DNA of 47,331 nucleotides from Promethearchaeota archaeon. Lineage in GTDB: Archaea; Asgardarchaeota; Lokiarchaeia; Sigyniarchaeales; SOKP01. Below, in pieces: positions 2-11,484 of this stretch (positions are counted from its first letter, which is position 1; each line of letters opens with the position of its first letter). Position numbers and translations under genes: made by a program. The stretch covers positions 1 through 47,331 of the forward strand of contig JABCSY010000019.1 of the NCBI GenBank assembly GCA_018238625.1, read 5' to 3'. The notes beneath the pieces were generated by a model. It worked only from the letters and a program-made list of their open reading frames with translations. It ran no database searches and was not told the origin of the DNA.

Positions 2-472
2 TGGTGGCTTGAAAGAGATATTTATTGGCCTGAGATAGATATAGATTGGTACGAGTGTAGAAAACAAATAAATAGCATCCTATCTCAAGAAAACGAACTA
101 AAAAATGTCACCCAATTAGTTGGTGAAGAAAACTTACCCGAAAATCAACAATTTATCCTTTTCATTTCAAACTTGATTAGAAATGGTTTATTAATTCAAA
201 ATGCCTTTGATTCGATAGATTGTTTCACAGGCGTTAAAAAATTAATAGGGCTCGTAAAACTCATTCTATTACTCTTTAAAGAGGGCAAGGGACTCTTAAA
301 GCAAGATTTCTTAATTGAAGATATCAAAGAACTCGATGTTGTAAATGACATTCTTAGAACTTGCCGTTCTGTTCCTAATAATAATTTTGATCAAATAGAG
401 AAATTAAGAAAGAAAATGCTACACGAAATAGAGTCGTTAAAATTAACATATGGGGTTTTTAGGAAAAAATGA
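2..472 (+). CDS. atpA: A/V-type ATP synthase subunit A, C-terminal part (gene begins before the window)
   Basis: Frame is open from base 2 ([33 protein letters not shown]...[10 protein letters not shown]) and aligns by eye with the C-terminus of the A subunit at 5398-7209. Its stop overlaps the subunit B start (ATGA). Confidence 0.9.
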
Positions 473-1860
473 GCGTAATTTATAGAAAAATAAAACAAAT
501 TGTTGGACCTTTAATATTTGTAGATAATAGGCACGATGTACAATATGGTGAAATCGTTAAAATCCATACTGAGGATGGAAAAGAACGCACAGGCCAAGTC
601 ATAAAAATGGATGAAAAGATAATAACCATTGAAGTATTTGAAGATACAGCTGGAATTTCCTCAGAAAATGCTGTAATTACTTTTACTGAAGAATCGTTTA
701 AGATAAAAATTTCCAGTGATATGTTTGGAAGGGTTTTTAACTCCTTAGGAAAACCTATTGATATTAACACGAAGCAAGTGTTAGATTCTAATTTATTTAC
801 CGAAATTGAACGAGATATAAATGGATTACCAATTAATCCTTTTGCAAGAGAATATCCAACGCAAGTCATCCAAACGGGAATATCGGTAATAGACGGTCTT
901 TTTACATTAATAAGAGGACAAAAACTCCCAATATTTAGCGGTCAAGGATTACCCCATAATTTATTAGCGGCTCAAATTGTTACTCAAGCAAAAGTTTTGA
1001 CGGAAGAGCCTTTCTTAATAATTTTTTGTGGTATTGGAATTATCCAAGATGAAGCGATCTTTTTTATGAATCGTTTTAAAGAAAGTGGAAACATCCAAAA
1101 TATCATTTCATTTATCAATTTTGCCGACGATCCAATAATGGAAAGACTAATAATTCCGCGAGTAGCATTAACTACTGCTGAATATTTTGCATTCGAAAAA
1201 GATATGCATGTTCTCGTTGTTTTAATAGACATGACGAATTATGCTGAAGCTTTAAGAGAACTAAGTGCCGCCAAAGAAGAGATTCCTAGCAGAAAGGGGT
1301 ATCCGGGTTATTTATACACTGATTTCGCATCGATCTACGAAAGAACTGGTAAAATTAAAGGTAAAAAAGGGACAATAACTCAATTACCAATTTTGACGAT
1401 GCCTAACGACGATATTTCTCATCCAATTCCGGATACAACAGGGTATATAACTGAAGGGCAGTTAGTTCTTAATCGTAACTTAGAAAAGAAGGGAATATAT
1501 CCCCCTTTTGAAGTCTTAGCGTCTATATCACGCCTTATGAAAGATTCAATCGGTAAAGATACTACTAGGGAAGACCATGCCGACGTTAACTCTCAGCTAT
1601 TAGCGTCGTATTCAGCTGCCCTTGAAGTTAGAGATCTTATATCGATTGTAGGAGAGGATGGATTAAACTTAAATCAAAAAGCGCTATTAAGATTTGGTAA
1701 CTTTTTCGAACAAAAATTTTTAAATCAAGGGCACACAGAAGAAAGGGATTTTTCAACGACTCTCAATATTGCATGGCAAGCTTTATCTAATTTGCCCAAA
1801 AATCAATTATTTAGAATACGGGAAGATTTTGTTGATAAGTATTACATTGAAGAGGTGTAA
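469..1860 (+). CDS. atpB: A/V-type ATP synthase subunit B
   Basis: 463 aa with [55 protein letters not shown] and the arginine-finger region SISRLM. Confidence 0.95.
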
Positions 1861-1866
1861 GTATCA

Positions 1867-2505
1867 ATTAGTTTTAGAGAATTTAAACCCACAAAAACAA
1901 ATTTAATGAGTCTACAGAAAAAGTTAACTTTTGCTGTTAAAGGCGAAAATTTTCTAAAATTTAAATTAGAACAAATTATATTTGAAATCAAAAAAAATTG
2001 GGACAATTATTTAGAACAACGTGAAATCTTTTTAAAATTATATAAAGAAACCATGATTAAGCTTAATCAAACATATAAAGAAATGGGTAAACGAGAATTT
2101 AATCTGATTAGTAAATTAAGTAAAATCCAATATAACCCAAAGATTGCTGTAAACTATACAAAAAAGATTGGAACATTAGTGCCAACAATAGATTACGAAC
2201 TGATACGGGAAGAATTACTTCCAGCTTACTCTTTTGAAAATACATCTCATTATCTTGATGATTTGATTATTCTTTTAATAAAATTTTTTAAAAGTCTTAT
2301 AATTGTTGCACAGACTGAAGATATATTGTTGAAACTCTCTCTAACTTTTAAAAAAATAAATCGTAGGATAAATGGTCTGAAGAACGTAATCATTCCTGAA
2401 CTACAAATAGACATCAAAAAAATTAAGGCTGTACTTGAAGAAATAGAAAGAGAGAATTATATTCGGCTAAAAAATACAAAGAATCTAATTACAAAAAATG
2501 CTTAA
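1867..2505 (+). CDS. atpD: A/V-type ATP synthase subunit D (central stalk)
   Basis: C-terminal KINRRINGLKNVIIP...LEEIERENYIRLK is typical of subunit D. The conserved N-terminal KPTKxNL lies upstream of the ATG at 1906, so the start is placed tentatively at ATT 1867. Confidence 0.85.
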   Translation: MSFREFKPTKTNLMSLQKKLTFAVKGENFLKFKLEQIIFEIKKNWDNYLEQREIFLKLYKETMIKLNQTYKEMGKREFNLISKLSKIQYNPKIAVNYTKKIGTLVPTIDYELIREELLPAYSFENTSHYLDDLIILLIKFFKSLIIVAQTEDILLKLSLTFKKINRRINGLKNVIIPELQIDIKKIKAVLEEIERENYIRLKNTKNLITKNA

Positions 2506-2522
2506 TTGAGGAATAAAAAAAA

Positions 2523-4811
2523 ATGACAAAGAAAAGCTCCATGGAATTATTTAAGGTAAATATTAACCAAAATTACAAGGATCTTCTATTACAACACATA
2601 TCTCAGCTTAATCTAGTTCACATTAAAACGAAACCTGAAATAAGTGACATAATTGAAAAAGATAAAGTTTTGTTTGATAGAATTAAGAAATTAAGCCAAA
2701 ATTTAGAAACTTTATTCAAAAACCTTAATATTACTGAAGCAGACTTCCAAAAATTAATATTTGAAAAAGAAGAAAGAAAACAATTTGAAGTTAAAGATGT
2801 AGACGATTTGTTAAATCAAATATTGAGCGAAATTAATTTTTATTCAAACAGAGTTAATGAGTTAAAAAAATATATGATCACTATCAAAGTGGAATTGGAT
2901 AAAATAAATTTGATCCATGTAAGTTACATATTTTTGGAAAAGTATAAGCTAACGCGAGATAAATTATCGAAGTTTAATCGTTTAGAATTTAAAGCCTTTA
3001 CAACCTTCTCAAAGAACCTCGAAAATATAGAAAATCTCTTTGAATTTTCTCATTTTCCAAATTTTTTTCAGTATGATTTTTTAAGCGATGAAAGAATTGC
3101 CTTTTTCGTAATATATCCAAAGGAACAAGAAGAGGCATTTAGAGAGAGAATACGCATCATTCATGCAGAAGAAGTACCGATTCTGAAAAAATATTTGCTC
3201 TCAAACGGGATAAACTTTCCCCGTATAGCAGATGAAATTAAGTTTATTGTGACTTCTTTAAATAAATATCAAAAGGAATTAGAACGATTAAGAGATGATA
3301 ATACACTACTATTTGCTGCTACGAATGAGATTATGCAAAATATAGAAGAATATAATTGGGCTTCACATCAATTCGAAGAATTATCTTTAAATCGACTAAG
3401 TTTGTGTTTTTTTGTACCACAAGAAAAAAAACAAGAAATACAAGAGGGGTTGATTGAAAAGTTCCAAGATCAAATAACGATTGAATCAATCGCTATTACA
3501 AAAAATAAATCTGTTAGCCTAGAAGACGGTATAGGTCATGTGCACTCAGGAAAGACGCTAGACTCCAAAAGGAAAGTCTCTTCATTAAAGGAAGAACCGA
3601 CGGAAAATAATAAAGAAAATAAAAAGGATTTAAGAAATACAGCTCCAACAATTATGAAGAATAATTTATTTGTGAGACCTTTTGAAACTATTACTAATTT
3701 ATACGGCGTTCCTGCCTATTCAGAAATAGATCCCACTCCCTTTTTGGCAATAACTTTTCCACTTTTGTTTGGGTTGATGTTTGGTGATATAGGACATGGC
3801 ATCATATTAATTATCTCAGGTTTGATTGGAGCAATTGTCTATAGGAACAAAAAAAGTAGAGATTTCTTAAATTTTTGCTGGATAATTCTGTATTGTGGAA
3901 TCGGTTCTATACTAGCTGGGGTTTTATATGGCGAATTTTTTGGGATGCATAACATTGAATTATTTGGAACGGTTTTTTTACACCTAGAACCTGTGACAAT
4001 TCCATATTTAAATATCACTTTATATAATCCATTAGATAATATAATGGTCGTTTTTAAGTTCGCTGTATTAATTGGAGTGATACATATTAATTTGGGCTGG
4101 TTTATACAGTTTATGAATTATTGGAAGCAACATAGAAAGTTTTTAGGTTTTACAGACTCTTTAGTTAAAATATGGTTATTAACTGGAGGAACTATTTTAA
4201 TTTTTACTTTTAGTTTTGATGTCTATGTATGGATGGCACCTCCTTACCCTATTTTGTTGCCATTGCTCCCAGGTATATTATTAATACTGTTAAAACCTTT
4301 TGGAAAACTTTTCCGCGTTTCTTATTTGAAAGAAGAGTCAATTGGAGGTCTTATTGGGGAAGGTACAATGGAGTCATTTGAAACGTTATTATCGATAATG
4401 AGCAATGTAGCATCTTATATAAGGCTACTAGCTTTAGCTTTAGCACATATCTCTTTAATGGTCGCAATTCAAGCAATGATGGATTTAATTCAAGGTGGGG
4501 GGGTTATTAACGAGATAATTAGTATAATAGGATTGGTTTTTGGTAATATAATTGTTATTTTGTTAGAAGGATTACTTGTTTTTATAAATGCTATAAGGCT
4601 CCATTTTTACGAATTTTTCTTCAAATTCTATCAAGGATCTGGGGTTACATATATTCCTTTTTATTTAGACGATACATATTCAGTTGTTTCCTTTAAATTA
4701 AGCACCTTAAAAGATGTTATTTCCGAAGAAATAGATAGAGAGATTGAATCTAAGAAAACTCATGAGGATATAATTAAAGCAGAACGATATATTTCTAAAA
4801 AATATTTGTAA
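2523..4811 (+). CDS. atpI: A/V-type ATP synthase subunit I (a)
   Basis: YGVPAYSEIDPT, FGLMFGDIGHG, SYIRLLALALAH (essential Arg) and RLHFYEFF motifs. Soluble N-terminal half and multi-TM C-terminal half. Confidence 0.93.
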   Translation: MTKKSSMELFKVNINQNYKDLLLQHISQLNLVHIKTKPEISDIIEKDKVLFDRIKKLSQNLETLFKNLNITEADFQKLIFEKEERKQFEVKDVDDLLNQILSEINFYSNRVNELKKYMITIKVELDKINLIHVSYIFLEKYKLTRDKLSKFNRLEFKAFTTFSKNLENIENLFEFSHFPNFFQYDFLSDERIAFFVIYPKEQEEAFRERIRIIHAEEVPILKKYLLSNGINFPRIADEIKFIVTSLNKYQKELERLRDDNTLLFAATNEIMQNIEEYNWASHQFEELSLNRLSLCFFVPQEKKQEIQEGLIEKFQDQITIESIAITKNKSVSLEDGIGHVHSGKTLDSKRKVSSLKEEPTENNKENKKDLRNTAPTIMKNNLFVRPFETITNLYGVPAYSEIDPTPFLAITFPLLFGLMFGDIGHGIILIISGLIGAIVYRNKKSRDFLNFCWIILYCGIGSILAGVLYGEFFGMHNIELFGTVFLHLEPVTIPYLNITLYNPLDNIMVVFKFAVLIGVIHINLGWFIQFMNYWKQHRKFLGFTDSLVKIWLLTGGTILIFTFSFDVYVWMAPPYPILLPLLPGILLILLKPFGKLFRVSYLKEESIGGLIGEGTMESFETLLSIMSNVASYIRLLALALAHISLMVAIQAMMDLIQGGGVINEIISIIGLVFGNIIVILLEGLLVFINAIRLHFYEFFFKFYQGSGVTYIPFYLDDTYSVVSFKLSTLKDVISEEIDREIESKKTHEDIIKAERYISKKYL

Positions 4812-4830
4812 AGTAGATTTATTATAAAAT

Positions 4831-5355
4831 ATGAAAACTGAAAACACGAAAGAAAGCTCATCTAAGAAAAATCTTTCTTTTAAAATGTTACTACTAATTA
4901 TTTATCTAATTGTTTTAATCTTTTTATATATTATATTGATGGAGATTGGAACAAACCCACTTCTCATTATTTTAATATTAGGATTCGTGCTGTTGCTATT
5001 TGTAGGATCCCTTTTTATTAAAAAAAAGCAAAGCCCAATTTATTCAAAAATGTTTCCTGATAAAAAAAGAAGAAGTCAAGATTTTCATCGAAAATTAGAA
5101 TTAAAGATAGAAACGGAACCAGAGAAACCAGCTCAAAAACAATTTAAAGAAGTGAATCTTAACTTTAAGTATCGCAAGTCCCTTATCAATAAATGCGAGA
5201 ATTGCGGGATGCTCATAACCGGATATAGGAAAAATTGCCCTACATGCGGTCAAGCAATTCAACTGAAAGAAATCGTTAAGAAATGTAAAAATTGTGGGAT
5301 GCTAATTACAAAGTCTGTAAAAATTTGTCCAATTTGTAGAAAACGAACAACATAA
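4831..5355 (+). CDS. Membrane-anchored protein with two tandem zinc ribbons
   Basis: Two N-terminal hydrophobic helices. C-terminal CENC..CPTC and CKNC..CPIC. Confidence 0.8.
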   Translation: MKTENTKESSSKKNLSFKMLLLIIYLIVLIFLYIILMEIGTNPLLIILILGFVLLLFVGSLFIKKKQSPIYSKMFPDKKRRSQDFHRKLELKIETEPEKPAQKQFKEVNLNFKYRKSLINKCENCGMLITGYRKNCPTCGQAIQLKEIVKKCKNCGMLITKSVKICPICRKRTT

Positions 5356-5397
5356 TAAAAAACATAATGTTTACTTGCATGGTAGGAATAGTAAAAA

Positions 5398-7209
5398 ATG
5401 GTCACAGAAACAAATAATTCTAATTTGGGTTTTATTTCTGCTGTTAATGGATCCATAGTAGAGGTTAAAGGATTAGAAAATCAGGTTCGGCTTCATGATT
5501 TAATTAAGATTTGTAACTATAATATTATTTGTCAGGTAATTCAAATCTATTCAGATCGTGTAATAGCCCAATCTTTTGAAACTACTAATAGTATAAAATT
5601 AAACGATAAAGTAATTAATCTTAACGAACCTCTATCCATGGAGTTAGCACCAGGATTGTTAGCAAATGTTTTTGATGGAATTCAGAGACCTTTAGACCTT
5701 ACTTTCAGCCACTTTAAAGAAGGAAAATTAGGAAGAGGCCTTGAATTTCCCTCTTTGTCAAGGACAAAAAAATGGCATTTTATTCCATCGAGAAAAATAA
5801 ACGATTCTTTAAGTAGTGGAGATGAAATTGGGACCGTTCAAGAAACTCTCTTTTTTAAACATAAAATAATGGTTCCTCCTGAAAATTCTGGTGTTTTATC
5901 GTTTATTGTTGACGAAGGTGATTATACAATTATCGATGAGATATATACCTTGAGAAAGGATAACGTAGATAAATCTTATTGTATGCTACAAAAATGGCCA
6001 GTTACTGTGAGCAAACCTTATAGCTCAAAAGATCAACCTAGCGAACCTTTACTAACTGGCTTGCGTATTGTAGATTTATTGTTTCCCATAGCCAAAGGTG
6101 GTACTTTTGCTGTTCCAGGAGGGTTTGGAACTGGTAAAACAATTATTTCGCAACATATTGCTAAATTTTGTAACGCAGAAATTTGCGTTTTTATAGGCTG
6201 TGGAGAGCCTGGCAATGAAATAGCAAATTTTCTAAAACAATTTACAGAAACTGTTGATCCCAAAACGGGAAGACCATTATTAGAGCATATCGTTCTTATT
6301 GCCAATACTTCAAATATGCCCGTGTCTGCTCGCGAAGCAAGCCTTTTTTCAGGTATTACAATCGCAGAATATTATAGAGATATGGGATATGATGTTGCCG
6401 TTGTAGCAGATAGCATTTCAAGATGGGCAGAGTCCTTAAGAGAAATCTCAGGTCTATTAGAGGAAATGCCTGCTGAAGAGGGTTATCCCGCGTATTTGCC
6501 TTCGAAACTATCAAGTTTTTTTGAACGAGCCGGTGTCATTACAACTTTAGGAAAAAAAAAAGGATCCATTACAATCATAGGATCGTTATCTCCACCAGCG
6601 GGAGATTTTAGCGAACCAGTTACCGCAGCAACTAAACGTGTTGTTCAAGGGATCTGGGCTTTAGACCCAAAATTAGCATATCTAAAACATTATCCCGCAA
6701 TTAGTTGGATCAGTTCATACTCCAATTATCCTGAGTATGTAGCAGAATGGTGGAGCGAGAGAGATATTGTTTGGCCTGAGATAAATTTGAACTGGTTTGA
6801 GTGTAGAAAACAAGTAAATGACATTTTAGCTAAAGAAAACGAGTTGAAATACCTTACACAGCTACTAGGGCTAAGAAATCTGGCTGAAGATCAAAGGTTA
6901 GAAATCTTTACGGCAAATTTAATAAGAAATGCATTTTTAGTTCAAAATGCTTTCAACGAAGTTGATAGTTATACAAGTAGTAAAAAATTGCTAGGGCTAG
7001 TAAAGGTAATACTTTTATTATATAATAAAACTAAATCCCTTGTAAAACGAGGTTTTCTAATTGATGAGAAGAAGTGCGATAAAGTTCTCAATGAGGTTAT
7101 GAAAATCTGCCATTACATTCCTAATGAAAATTTTAAACCAATTGAAGAGTTAAGGGATAAAATTAATAATGGATCTGTAGGTTTAGTTTTCAAAGTTCAT
7201 CGAAGATAG
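5398..7209 (+). CDS. atpA: A/V-type ATP synthase subunit A, second paralog
   Basis: 603 aa with ELAPGLL..FDGIQRPL, Walker A GGFGTGKT, NTSNMPVSAREAS, DSISRWAESLREIS and MPAEEGYPAYL. GEPGNE replaces canonical GERGNE. Confidence 0.93.
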   Translation: MVTETNNSNLGFISAVNGSIVEVKGLENQVRLHDLIKICNYNIICQVIQIYSDRVIAQSFETTNSIKLNDKVINLNEPLSMELAPGLLANVFDGIQRPLDLTFSHFKEGKLGRGLEFPSLSRTKKWHFIPSRKINDSLSSGDEIGTVQETLFFKHKIMVPPENSGVLSFIVDEGDYTIIDEIYTLRKDNVDKSYCMLQKWPVTVSKPYSSKDQPSEPLLTGLRIVDLLFPIAKGGTFAVPGGFGTGKTIISQHIAKFCNAEICVFIGCGEPGNEIANFLKQFTETVDPKTGRPLLEHIVLIANTSNMPVSAREASLFSGITIAEYYRDMGYDVAVVADSISRWAESLREISGLLEEMPAEEGYPAYLPSKLSSFFERAGVITTLGKKKGSITIIGSLSPPAGDFSEPVTAATKRVVQGIWALDPKLAYLKHYPAISWISSYSNYPEYVAEWWSERDIVWPEINLNWFECRKQVNDILAKENELKYLTQLLGLRNLAEDQRLEIFTANLIRNAFLVQNAFNEVDSYTSSKKLLGLVKVILLLYNKTKSLVKRGFLIDEKKCDKVLNEVMKICHYIPNENFKPIEELRDKINNGSVGLVFKVHRR

Positions 7210-7245: not shown

Positions 7246-7848
7246 TCAGGGTTTGAACCATTCAAAGAAGTAATAACTCATTGTTAATGGATTGGCGATC
7301 ACAAACTTCTTCCTTACAGAGGTCGCCAACCTTCCAGCTCGAACCATATCAATCGCAGTTATCTTTGCATCATGAGGTAACACATGAGCAATAAATGCTG
7401 AATGCTCTAACCCCGGTCCTTTTTTATACACCACAAAATCAGCGCCAAATTTTAACCCTGGACGAGGAATATATCCCTTTTTCCTTAAATCTTGGTAAAT
7501 AATATATTTTTCTTCAAATTTATGATGTATTTTTTTTCCTATTTCGTGAAATTCTTTGGGAGAAAGGTACTTATCGCTCTTAGCGTCAAAGATAGTAATC
7601 TTTTCTTTTTCCAACAAGTAAAGTGCTTCAATAAGTGATAATTCCGATGGTTTAGAAAAATATTCTAAACGGGGTTTGCTTATCCCGAGAGGAGCCCCAA
7701 AAAACTTTTGTTTAACGTACAAATAGCTTGCATGCAATGGGTTAAACACAATTACGCGATTATTAATAAATTTAGCTGGAACCTTTTCTGGGATGTCGTC
7801 GTCGTTTATATCCTCCAGCGAAATGGGAATCTCTTTTTCTTTACTCAT
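7246..7848 (-). CDS. endA: tRNA-intron splicing endonuclease
   Basis: LSLIEALYL, YQDLRKKGY..RPGLKFGADFVVY, catalytic His (LEHS) and GRLATSVRKK. Confidence 0.93.
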   Translation of the reverse strand: MSKEKEIPISLEDINDDDIPEKVPAKFINNRVIVFNPLHASYLYVKQKFFGAPLGISKPRLEYFSKPSELSLIEALYLLEKEKITIFDAKSDKYLSPKEFHEIGKKIHHKFEEKYIIYQDLRKKGYIPRPGLKFGADFVVYKKGPGLEHSAFIAHVLPHDAKITAIDMVRAGRLATSVRKKFVIANPLTMSYYFFEWFKP

Positions 7849-7990: not shown

Positions 7991-8311
7991 ATGACATTCA
8001 AAGTTTTATTCATTGCACATGCACCTGATGCAGATTATAAAAAACATAGAAGTGTAATTGATACTGGAATGTATAAATTGTATTCTATAGTTGTAAGAAC
8101 CCAAGAAGAGGCAGTACAAATATCCAAAGATTATCTGCAAAATGAATCAATAGAAGCTATATTATTGTGTCCTGGATTCAAACATAGTGATGTAGCTGAA
8201 ATCTTTGAAGCTTTAGAAGGTAAAGTAAGTGTAAATGTAGCAAGAGGAGATGGTCCAAGTAGCAAGATTTCTGCGGAAGCTAGGAAAAAAGCAGGATATT
8301 TTCGTTCATAA
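7991..8311 (+). CDS. DUF6506-like small conserved protein
   Basis: 106 aa. IEAILLCPGF and VNVARGDGPS recalled as typical of this family. Confidence 0.65.
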   Translation: MTFKVLFIAHAPDADYKKHRSVIDTGMYKLYSIVVRTQEEAVQISKDYLQNESIEAILLCPGFKHSDVAEIFEALEGKVSVNVARGDGPSSKISAEARKKAGYFRS

Positions 8312-8489: not shown

Positions 8490-9398
8490 TTGGTATTTAG
8501 AGAATCTTCTGCCGCGGGAATTTATTATCCACGATCCAAATCGGATTTAATTAAAATGTTGGACGAATCCTTTTTAGATAAAGAATTTGGACCAGGTGAA
8601 AAATTCGACTCTTTAAACCAAAAAACAAGAACAGTTTTTGGTGGAATATCTCCACACGGGGGTTACGCTTATTCTGGTAGCTGTGCATCGCATACATATT
8701 TACATCTGTTTAAGGAAAAAATTCCAGATACGGTTGTAATATTAGCCACTGAAGATTTAGGATATAACAACATTGCTTTACTAGAAGTAGGCGAATGGGA
8801 AACTCCATTAGGTAACCTAGAGATTGATGGCGATTTGACTCAAAAATTGCTAAAAACGAGTAGCATGATTAAAGGAGACGATTCTGCTTTTGTTGGATTT
8901 CCTTTTGGAAGAGAATATTATATTGATGTACAATTGCCGTTTATTAAATATTGTGCTTTAAAGAAAGAGATAAAAATCTTGCCAATTATTATTTCTATAA
9001 TGGATTATGATAAATTAGATAAATTATCCAGAGATATAGCGAGAGCAGTTCAATCCTTAAACAAAGATATAGTATTTATAGGTTCTACAGATATGAGCCA
9101 TATTATTTGCAAAGATGAATTTACTGCTGAATTAAAAGTACAAGAAATGCTCTTAGCAGATAAAGCTGTAATCAAATCGTTTACAGAATTTAATCCAAAG
9201 AAAACTTTTTTTGACGCGTCAAGGTCTTCTATAAAAGGACCACAAATTCTTACTACATTAATGCTAATATGTAAAAGGATGGGTGCAAACGAATGTAAAA
9301 CGTTAACTTATTACACCAGTTATGACAAAGGTGGAGGATCTGGGCCATGTAAATATAATGCAGGATATTTTTCGGGGATTATTGTAAAAGATATTTAA
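8490..9398 (+). CDS. MEMO1 / AmmeMemoRadiSam protein B family, degenerate paralog
   Basis: AGIYYP, SPHGGYAYSG, WETPLG, VQLPF and STDMSH are present, but several His/Cys positions are substituted relative to the next gene. Confidence 0.85.
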   Translation: MVFRESSAAGIYYPRSKSDLIKMLDESFLDKEFGPGEKFDSLNQKTRTVFGGISPHGGYAYSGSCASHTYLHLFKEKIPDTVVILATEDLGYNNIALLEVGEWETPLGNLEIDGDLTQKLLKTSSMIKGDDSAFVGFPFGREYYIDVQLPFIKYCALKKEIKILPIIISIMDYDKLDKLSRDIARAVQSLNKDIVFIGSTDMSHIICKDEFTAELKVQEMLLADKAVIKSFTEFNPKKTFFDASRSSIKGPQILTTLMLICKRMGANECKTLTYYTSYDKGGGSGPCKYNAGYFSGIIVKDI

Positions 9399-9429
9399 TA
9401 GAAAAAGAACAATAATTATTTAGAAGAAG

Positions 9430-10326
9430 GTGACAAAATTGGTTATAAGAAAAGCATCACATGCGGGAAGTTGGTACCCTGGTAATAAAGAAGACTTAAT
9501 AAAAAACCTTGATTATATGTTTTCTGATAAAGAATTTGGGCCAGGTAAATTACCTGAAACGCTAAATCAAGACAATAGGACTATAATTGGAGGTGTGTCT
9601 CCTCATGCAGGATATACCTTTTCTGGAAGATGTGCCGCCTTTACGTATTTGAACTTATTTAAAGAAAGAATCCCGGACACAGTTATCGTATTAGGGACGG
9701 ATCATGTTGGTTATAGAAAGGTGGCTCTATTAGAAGATGGAGCTTGGGAAACGCCTTTAGGTAACTTACAAATTGATGATGAATTATCTAAAAAAATTTT
9801 AGATACAAGTGAAATTATTGTTGAAGATAGTTCTGCCTTCACCGGCATCATGGAACGAGAACATAATATTGAGATACAATTACCTTTCATTAAATATTGT
9901 GCTAAAGATAAAGACGTAAAAATAGTAACGCTAAAAATGGGAATTAGAAGGGATTATAGCGTATTTGAAGTTGAACAAATAGCTTCTGATATTTCTACAG
10001 CAATTAAGGCGTTAAACAAAGATGTAGTTATTGTAGCATCGACTGATATGTCGCATAAAGATGTTTTTGATACAAATCAATTAAGAGAGTTTAAGAAATT
10101 TGATCAAGATGTTATTGATGCTTTTATAGAATTTAATCCTAAAAAAACATTTTCAGCTGCTTCAAAAACAACCGTATGCGGACCCCAAACAATGACGACT
10201 TTAATGTTAATTTGTGAAAAATTAAACGCAACTTTAGGTGAATTGTTAAAATATTATACTAGTTTCGATATTAAGGGTGAATATGGATATTGTGTTAGTT
10301 ATTTTTCGGGTATTATAGTAGTTTAA
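9430..10326 (+). CDS. MEMO1 / AmmeMemoRadiSam protein B family
   Basis: RKASHAGSWYP, SPHAGYTFSG, GTDH, WETPLG, EHNIEIQLPF, STDMSH, TVCG and YYTS motifs. Confidence 0.92.
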   Translation: MTKLVIRKASHAGSWYPGNKEDLIKNLDYMFSDKEFGPGKLPETLNQDNRTIIGGVSPHAGYTFSGRCAAFTYLNLFKERIPDTVIVLGTDHVGYRKVALLEDGAWETPLGNLQIDDELSKKILDTSEIIVEDSSAFTGIMEREHNIEIQLPFIKYCAKDKDVKIVTLKMGIRRDYSVFEVEQIASDISTAIKALNKDVVIVASTDMSHKDVFDTNQLREFKKFDQDVIDAFIEFNPKKTFSAASKTTVCGPQTMTTLMLICEKLNATLGELLKYYTSFDIKGEYGYCVSYFSGIIVV

Positions 10327-10362
10327 TAGAAAAATAAAAAAACTAAAATTAAAGAAAAAATT

Positions 10363-11484
10363 TTGAGAAATATGCCAGAGGAAAACGAGGAGAAAGTAGA
10401 AGATTTTATCTCTCTATGGAAAAAAAAAATCACATCAGAAAATCAATCTTCTGTAATTGGAGAGTCACTAAATAAAATTGAATCATTACAAAAAGAAAAC
10501 GAAGATTTAAGAAATAAGATTTCTGCCAATATCAATTTAATAACCCGATCTGAGGAAATCCTTAAAAGCGTTGTTGCTGAAAAAGAAAAATTAAAAGTAG
10601 AGAAAGAAGAGGCGGTAGCTGAAATAAGCATAAAATTTAACAACTTACAAGTCGAAAATTCAGAGCTAAATAATAAAGTAAAAAGTATGATAAAACTCTT
10701 GCTAGAAAAGGACGAAGAGATTAAATCCAAAGATAGTCTAATATCTTATCTGCAAACAACGAGTGTTTCTGCGTCAGTACCAACAACTCCAGCAAATAAC
10801 GCGTTGGTTGAGGAGCTACAATCAGATTTAAATAAAAGAAAATCTAATGTAACAGCACTAGAGTCAAAAATTTCATCATTATCGGAAGAGATTAAGTCGC
10901 TCAATAGTCAATTAATTGAAAAAATGAAAAGCGAGCCTGTAGATTATGTAATTCAAGCAGAACCTCCTAAACCTCAAGCACCCCCCGTTATTAAACCACT
11001 CCCGCCTGAACCGTCGTCAAGGCCGCTTGAAGCATTATGTAAAGATCTTCAATCTGATTTAACCAAATACAAACGAGTGATCGAAAAGATAACCAAAGAG
11101 AAATCGCAACTTAAGAATGCTTTAGAAGAAAAAGGATTCCAATTTAGCTCTCAAGATTTGGAATCATTGAAAGAAGAAAATGAATCCCTTAAAAAGGATC
11201 TTGAAGAAATCCAAAGTTCTCTTGAGGTTAAGAAAATAGAAGCAACGCAGATTGCCACCCAAAATGTCGAACAAAAAATAAAAAACCTTGAAAGTAAAAT
11301 ACGAGAAAAGGAAGATATAATAGCCGACTTAAAATTATCACAGATATCCCCAACTTCGACTTCTGCAGGTTCGATGCCAGAATTAGTCGAAAATCTACAG
11401 AAAAATATAAACAAATTAAAATCAATTATTACTGAGAAAGATAATATAATTTCAGAATTAAATAAACAATTTAATCAAATGTAG
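10363..11484 (+). CDS. Segmented coiled-coil protein
   Basis: Heptad-rich E/K/L segments separated by S/T/P-rich linkers. The start may be ATG 10372. Confidence 0.75.
   Translation: MRNMPEENEEKVEDFISLWKKKITSENQSSVIGESLNKIESLQKENEDLRNKISANINLITRSEEILKSVVAEKEKLKVEKEEAVAEISIKFNNLQVENSELNNKVKSMIKLLLEKDEEIKSKDSLISYLQTTSVSASVPTTPANNALVEELQSDLNKRKSNVTALESKISSLSEEIKSLNSQLIEKMKSEPVDYVIQAEPPKPQAPPVIKPLPPEPSSRPLEALCKDLQSDLTKYKRVIEKITKEKSQLKNALEEKGFQFSSQDLESLKEENESLKKDLEEIQSSLEVKKIEATQIATQNVEQKIKNLESKIREKEDIIADLKLSQISPTSTSAGSMPELVENLQKNINKLKSIITEKDNIISELNKQFNQM

Follow-up and report, generated by a model that had tools for sequence, protein, structure and literature searches.

A family-specific paralog of catalytic subunit A without the gamma-phosphate arginine ends the only rotary ATPase operon of a Lokiarchaeial archaeon

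The 47,331-nucleotide contig JABCSY010000019.1 of a Promethearchaeota archaeon from the class Lokiarchaeia (assembly GCA_018238625.1), which we refer to in full as the window, begins within an operon for an archaeal/vacuolar-type (A/V-type) rotary ATPase that encodes two catalytic A subunits, A1 and A2. A2, which closes the sole rotary ATPase operon of this organism, is a paralog of the catalytic subunit that is specific to one family and maintained by selection. It retains the fold of subunit A, the P-loop, Walker B and the catalytic glutamate, and has lost the arginine of the GER motif, which is replaced by proline. From these sequence features we see about an even chance that A2 is a nucleotide-binding, near-dead head subunit that pairs with subunit B and brakes the enzyme. 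An initial annotation of this DNA had recognised the duplication, and missed the Arg-to-Pro change beside the catalytic Glu. The window is contig C58 of genome G000, an assembly of 4.29 Mb in 201 contigs with an estimated completeness of 97.9% and contamination of 7.6%. The features of the operon and its border are as follows.

2..472, + strand: 3' end of A1, last 156 codons (PF22919 match; 106-bp exact overlap with the end of contig C59)
469..1860, + strand: non-catalytic subunit B (Pfam; NF003235 677 bits against a cut-off of 349)
1906..2505, + strand: central-stalk subunit D (PF01813, E 1.9e-30)
2523..4811, + strand: membrane subunit I, the a-subunit homolog (PF01496; single locus in the genome)
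4831..5355, + strand: X174, a 174-residue protein encoded between I and A2 (weak zinc-ribbon Pfam matches; sequence inspection)
5398..7209, + strand: A2, full-length catalytic A paralog of 603 residues, final gene of the operon (PF02874, PF16886, PF00006 and PF22919)
6118..6141, + strand: Walker A motif GGFGTGKT, intact in A2
6196..6219, + strand: GCGEPGNE motif of A2, Glu270 kept and Pro271 in place of Arg, Pro codon 6208-6210 (ungapped alignment to 3vr2_A)
6391..6414, + strand: Walker B region DVAVVADS, intact in A2
6748..6783, + strand: segment WWSERDIVWPEI, common to A2 and A1 (window 2-37)
7246..7848, - strand: tRNA-intron endonuclease gene, convergent with the operon (PF01974/PF02778; synteny)

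The proline at position 271 defines A2. We calculated a maximum-likelihood phylogeny from 30 A sequences, comprising 11 A2, 14 A1 and five single-copy subunits from other families, and leaving out the A2 of genome G008, which is present in two pieces. The motif reads GCGEPGNE in all 11 A2 sequences and GCGERGNE in the 19 others. In an alignment of 149 sequences, made from the rows of the tree and database matches of at least 560 residues, the position is Pro in 103/103 A2-type sequences and Arg in 46/46 others. The catalytic Glu270 is invariant in the 103 A2-type sequences, and Walker A, Walker B and the neighbouring motifs are unchanged. Only two columns of the alignment differ consistently between A2 and the remaining sequences, Pro/Arg at 271 and Leu/Ile at 316. 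We found no compensating basic residue in A2 within this alignment; an arginine at site 414 is present in all A2 but also in 20 of the 46 others, and was rejected as a compensation. The best 120 database clusters found with A2 comprise 90 with the Pro form, 27 with the Arg form and three with neither, and the named ones are all called 'V-type ATP synthase subunit A' save for a single hypothetical protein, a marine-sediment record. We also observed one related contig from a metagenome-assembled genome that carries, at 8995-10821, an A subunit in the A1 position with a GER-region motif fitting neither pattern; in the stretch covered its operon ends with X174.

Residues 230-330 of A2 align without gaps to residues 228-328 of the solved chain 3vr2_A, placing Pro271 at index 269 of that 600-residue construct. 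The construct presumably carries a seven-residue tag, which would make index 269 Arg262. We take betaArg-182 of the Escherichia coli F1 enzyme to be the residue directly after the catalytic Glu. According to PMC5095293, the gamma-phosphate is bound by Arg262 of an 'arm' formed by residues 261-275, by the P-loop Lys238 and by Arg350 of subunit B. In E. coli F1 the betaR182Q and betaR182K mutants make no ATP and their binding of inorganic phosphate (Pi) is abolished, with ATPase activities of 0.020 and 0.25 units respectively against 42 for the wild type (PMC3268026). Crippling one of the three beta subunits in the PS3 enzyme results in complete loss of ATPase activity, a dominant effect (PMC4415626).

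A2 is otherwise like subunit A in each of its domains. It scores 692 bits on NF003220, above the cut-off of 470, and does not reach the stricter equivalog TIGR01043 (685 bits against 972, with the 496-residue A1 fragment at 667). Four Pfam domains exceed their cut-offs, including the A-specific barrel-sandwich insert. The GxxxxGKT motif, the Walker B Asp and the catalytic Glu expected of a subunit A are present, and the gene is encoded together with B, D and the membrane sector; the feature that is missing is the GER-motif Arg that binds the gamma-phosphate. In B subunits the P-loop is generally degenerate. A2 is not a B, as its P-loop is intact and it reaches 133 bits on NF003235 against a cut-off of 349. 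The best matches to solved chains are 3m4y_A and 1vdz_A (both E ~1e-165), followed by 3a5c_A (1e-153) and 3vr2_A (1e-147).

The organism has no rotary ATPase other than this one, whose operon closes with a spare A. A1 is divided between two contigs. C59 ends with exactly the 106 bases that open the window, and the first 496 codons of A1 lie at C59 14967-16454, in an open reading frame (ORF) that matches PF02874, PF16886 and PF00006 and carries the motif GCGERGNE. In three of four public runs, contigs have the same 12 bases ahead of the window start as C59. Upstream of A1, C59 encodes a 213-residue coiled-coil protein (cc213), the c subunit K, C, a 103-residue coiled-coil protein (cc103), F and E. 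Since K, C, F and E are supplied directly upstream of A1, this is one complete operon, in the order cc213-K-C-cc103-F-E-A1-B-D-I-X174-A2. A whole-genome family search returned three PF00006 genes (B, A1 and A2), one subunit I (PF01496) and one c subunit (PF00137), and no second complete ATPase operon with its own B, c and I/a was found in this 97.9%-complete genome. With one B, one I, one c and two A, we conclude that there is a single rotary ATPase.

The initial annotation had proposed that the cluster is a second, non-canonical rotary ATPase, possibly an ion pump and not the main synthase, and had suggested looking for a canonical operon elsewhere. We consider this very unlikely. The two A genes speak for it, but the family search revealed no separate operon and no further PF00006, PF01496 or PF00137 gene, and K, C, F and E on C59 directly precede A1; the operon is the only rotary ATPase in the genome, so neither the second enzyme nor the ion pump was supported. 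Genome G025, from another family of the same order, has two different ATPase clusters that look complete: the A of one is of the window type (56% identical to A1) and that of the other is of a distant type (47%). Two ATPase lineages therefore co-occur in the order.

The two A subunits flank B-D-I as originally described, with ORFs and Pfam matches showing A2 to be full length, and the duplication is an old one. The proteins are ~65% identical, falling to 51% across the 155 residues of the C-termini, where the shared WWxERDIxWPEI segment noted previously is indeed found in both. At the DNA level identity is 56-82% in windows of 60 codons, and 33-65% at third positions, near saturation. As the DNA is well diverged, with no identical run longer than 20 nucleotides, the copies are not an assembly repeat. 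In the phylogeny of both copies, which had also been proposed, the 11 A2 sequences among the 30 form one clade with support of 100/99, and their internal order mirrors that of the A1 copies. Gene conversion was considered as the source of the WWxERDIxWPEI segment and rejected: the early-branching A2 of G017 and G018 also carry it, and there is no tract of raised A1/A2 DNA identity. Within the segment an insertion of ~6-7 residues (ERDIxWPEI) follows the WW motif in A1 and A2 of the family and in one of the G025 copies; the order's distant single-copy A subunits do not have it, nor does the best solved chain.

A misassembly, a strain chimera or a pseudogene would be an extremely improbable explanation for A2. 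The estimated contamination of 7.6% and the contig break inside A1 could be taken in its favour, but the same gene order recurs on single contigs across many independent assemblies. Both copies lie ~6.7 kb apart on one contig in 9 of 18 other genus members, and on two contigs in a further 2 of the 18, with a common order in the gene maps of all of these; in every locus mapped that has A2, it lies in the operon. The order A1-B-D-I-X174-A2 is found on single contigs of nine other genus genomes and in seven of eight loci sampled in four further genera of the same family, the remaining stretch containing runs of N. This recurrence in other genomes and genera excludes the misjoin between I and A2 that had been raised as a concern, and contigs from other public runs (two records) bridge the X174-A2 junction. 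An apparent rearrangement, a back-joint from 6734 to 1, was rejected, as it represents an A1 contig partly aligned onto the paralogous A2 stretch. The A2 frames are open in all mapped genomes, and every copy is full length with all four domains; the one TGA reported in G011 proved to be the gene's own stop codon.

A2 is under purifying selection as strong as that on A1. We calculated pairwise ratios of nonsynonymous to synonymous substitution rates (dN/dS) by the Nei-Gojobori method, using our own script, for three unsaturated genome pairs. The values for A2 and A1 were 0.102 and 0.126 between G000 and G016, 0.110 and 0.119 between G002 and G004, and 0.098 and 0.146 between G014 and G013. Values of ~0.10 for A2 lie far from 1 and, together with the open frames, argue against both an artefact and a pseudogene. 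Synonymous divergence between G014 and G013 rises along the operon, from 0.05 in A1 and 0.07 in B to 0.13 in I, 0.14 in X174 and 0.31 in A2, which suggests that recombination replaced one operon end between these close species.

A2 is restricted to one family. A back-translated GCGEPGNE pattern was run against 400 genomes of the phylum, with the reversed pattern as a control. One match each was found in 75 of the 400 genomes and none with the control, and all 75 fall in the window's family, namely G000 and 74 of the 134 other members, with none in the 265 genomes outside. By genus the matches are 25/41 in g1, 42/54 in g20, 3/5 in g10, 2/10 in g19, 1/6 in g13 and 1/1 in g17. The GEPGNE pattern has at least 115 matches in metagenomes. 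Of 80 stretches with DNA, 51 are A-like, and among the matches listed each of these shares at least 62% identity with A2. The remaining 29 of the 80 were considered as independent origins of GEPGNE and rejected as chance matches outside A genes.

A2 is also a dispensable accessory gene. Five genus members, G003 (81% complete) and G257, G268, G274 and G258 (91-100%), have a complete operon ending with I-X174 directly against the endonuclease gene, without A2. Synteny maps show this endonuclease gene as a conserved border on the right of the operon, in loci with A2 and in loci without it. One further genus genome queried for subunit I gave no match. Of 24 public runs listed, none is recorded as RNA. 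In public run X20, which is labelled RNA-Seq and is probably DNA, one contig joins 5366 to 7246, omitting exactly A2, while other contigs carry it. We placed A2 presence on a tree of the operon, and not of the species, calculated by a quick search from concatenated A1, B, D and I (21 rows). At least four changes are needed on this tree, which with a single origin implies at least three losses, and G017, which has A2, is sister to G268, which lacks it, with support of 99. Absence from relatives had been named beforehand as a finding that would count against A2. This was borne out in part by the five genus members, yet the gene is strongly constrained where present, and for this reason the absences look like repeated loss of an accessory gene and not decay.

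Rotary ATPases are three-site motors with one kind of catalytic subunit. On the reading to which we give about an even chance, A2 would bind nucleotide and take an A position beside the sole B, the only one in the genome available as a partner, replacing one or more A1 in the A3B3 head. The site built from A2 would hold no phosphate and would be unable to reach the transition state. Since all three sites are needed in turn, even one A2 per head would be expected to halt hydrolysis and synthesis alike, or to slow them strongly. A2 may therefore act as a built-in brake or dose-dependent throttle, for example against ATP wastage in an energy-starved fermenter of the sediment, a role that fits an accessory gene discarded by some lineages. 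Per-site conservation is correlated between A2 and A1 (Spearman 0.75, with 171 of 600 sites near-invariant in both), as expected if A2 still works in the same complex, and conservation is highest in the nucleotide-binding domain, with a mean entropy of 0.44 and 85% consensus identity to A1. The alternative or mixed A/A' head put forward in the initial annotation is thus retained as the most plausible reading, separated from the second ATPase to which it had been attached. A stricter form, an obligate mixed head of, for example, two A1, one A2 and three B, with A2 placed relative to the peripheral stalks, seems to us unlikely. Were it correct, the three-stroke motor would become gated or re-geared, and it would be a recent, independent replay, in close relatives of the eukaryotes, of the ancient division into catalytic and non-catalytic head subunits.

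Several observations weigh against the proposed brake. Since the two copies separated, A2 has changed at roughly double the rate of A1, with path lengths from the shared node of ~0.61 and ~0.31 in G000. Relaxation in A2 affects 23 sites that are fixed in A1, nine of them in the C-terminal domain, an enrichment that is a trend only, and the reverse pattern is seen at two sites only; the relaxed sites could equally reflect a departure of A2 from the rotor-contacting role. That A2 may bind B, D and the stalks is suggested by conservation alone. A co-transcribed, dominant-negative subunit would be an odd design unless its dose were controlled post-transcriptionally. The proline might also be tolerated, the lysine of the P-loop and the arginine finger from B being enough. 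The mutant data come from F-type beta subunits with Gln or Lys, not from Pro and not from an A-type enzyme, and equating index 269 with Arg262 depends on the presumed seven-residue tag.

Two other roles for A2 have to be weighed against the brake. It may be an active isoenzyme with altered kinetics, such as weaker phosphate binding or less product inhibition, giving the single enzyme a second gear or a directional bias. The intact remaining catalytic motifs, the highly conserved nucleotide-binding domain and purifying selection equal to that on A1 are all in keeping with an active site. We nevertheless give an isoenzyme a low probability, as ATPase activity drops ~170-fold when the F1 beta Arg is replaced by Lys and 2000-fold when it is replaced by Gln, with synthesis and Pi binding both abolished; moreover no compensating basic residue has become fixed, only two sites differ consistently and the Arg is kept in 46/46 sequences that are not A2. 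A2 may instead function outside the rotating head, as a nucleotide-binding chaperone or an assembly factor for B or the stalks, as a plug of free membrane sectors or as a nucleotide sensor. Its dispensability in several lineages, its faster evolution with a relaxed rotor-facing C-terminal domain and its position at the end of the gene order, behind the membrane subunit rather than next to B, would suit such a role. Here the constraint is difficult to reconcile, as it tracks that on A1 over the whole length, and every A2 has kept its full length and all four domains. In addition, A2 has acquired no new domain or partner gene of its own, X174 also occurring without it, and a function outside the head seems to us rather improbable.

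Compared with AtpA/NtpA, subunit A of the A/V-type enzymes, A2 likewise has the four domains, the insert, Walker A and B, the catalytic Glu and the operon context; it differs in having Pro for Arg, in being a second copy and in its restriction to one Lokiarchaeial family. The A/B and beta/alpha pairs arose by an ancient duplication after which one copy lost catalysis (PMC10656485), and A2 is similarly a duplicated P-loop head subunit that kept its nucleotide motifs and lost a residue for turnover. In B and alpha, however, either the catalytic base or the P-loop is gone, and these subunits alternate obligately with the catalytic one, whereas A2 keeps both base and P-loop, is A-like throughout, coexists with a normal B and can be lost. 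In the engineered hybrid F1 with one incompetent beta (betaE190Q) and in E. coli betaR182Q/K, a crippled phosphate site leads to a dominant loss of multi-site catalysis, and neither synthesis nor Pi binding is left. These are laboratory mutants of F-type enzymes, and A2 is a natural, conserved A/V-type gene in which the residue is Pro. The mycoplasma F1-like alpha/beta pairs (MMOB1660/1670, MSC_0618) are likewise head paralogs outside the role of the main synthase. They have their own alpha-like and beta-like subunits in separate clusters, while A2 has no B of its own and lies in the main operon; on the mycoplasma models it scores 88-105 bits against cut-offs of 570-850.

In a full-text literature search we found no description of an arginine-less A paralog, and passages of PMC10656485, bioRxiv 10.64898/2026.10.01.756066 and PMC7997004 do not describe this one. 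If the proposed role is correct, a selected catalytic subunit without an essential residue would be a new built-in control, an encoded 'poison' or gear subunit, in Asgard archaea living at the thermodynamic limit. A2 would also offer a young and tractable case in which duplication and a partial functional loss give a ring complex non-equivalent subunits. Because A2 is labelled plainly 'V-type ATP synthase subunit A' in databases, copy counts or best-hit assignments that suggest 'two ATPases' in Lokiarchaeota can mislead.

X174 has hydrophobic N-terminal helices, with two transmembrane segments predicted, and four CxxC pairs forming a double zinc ribbon. It follows subunit I in all of the family operons mapped, with or without A2, and an X174-like ORF of 31% identity lies between K and a coiled-coil gene in G024, a genome of another family. 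X174 may represent an accessory or assembly subunit of this ATPase type that has so far escaped recognition. The c subunit, at C59 12088-12459, is the one-hairpin form and not a duplicated V-type proteolipid, having a single PF00137 hairpin, whose final helix contains a Glu (LCEALAVYG), and an N-terminal extension of ~50 residues. Also on C59, two adjacent ORFs of ~125 residues at 8501-8872 and 8938-9315 (- strand) correspond to the two successive halves of the BcrAD/BadFG activator ATPase family, and this split or frameshifted activase adjoins a gene for the D-component of 2-hydroxyglutaryl-CoA dehydratase. In the window, downstream of a DUF6506 gene (7991-8311), lie tandem Memo-like (PF01875) genes at 8490-9398 and 9430-10326.

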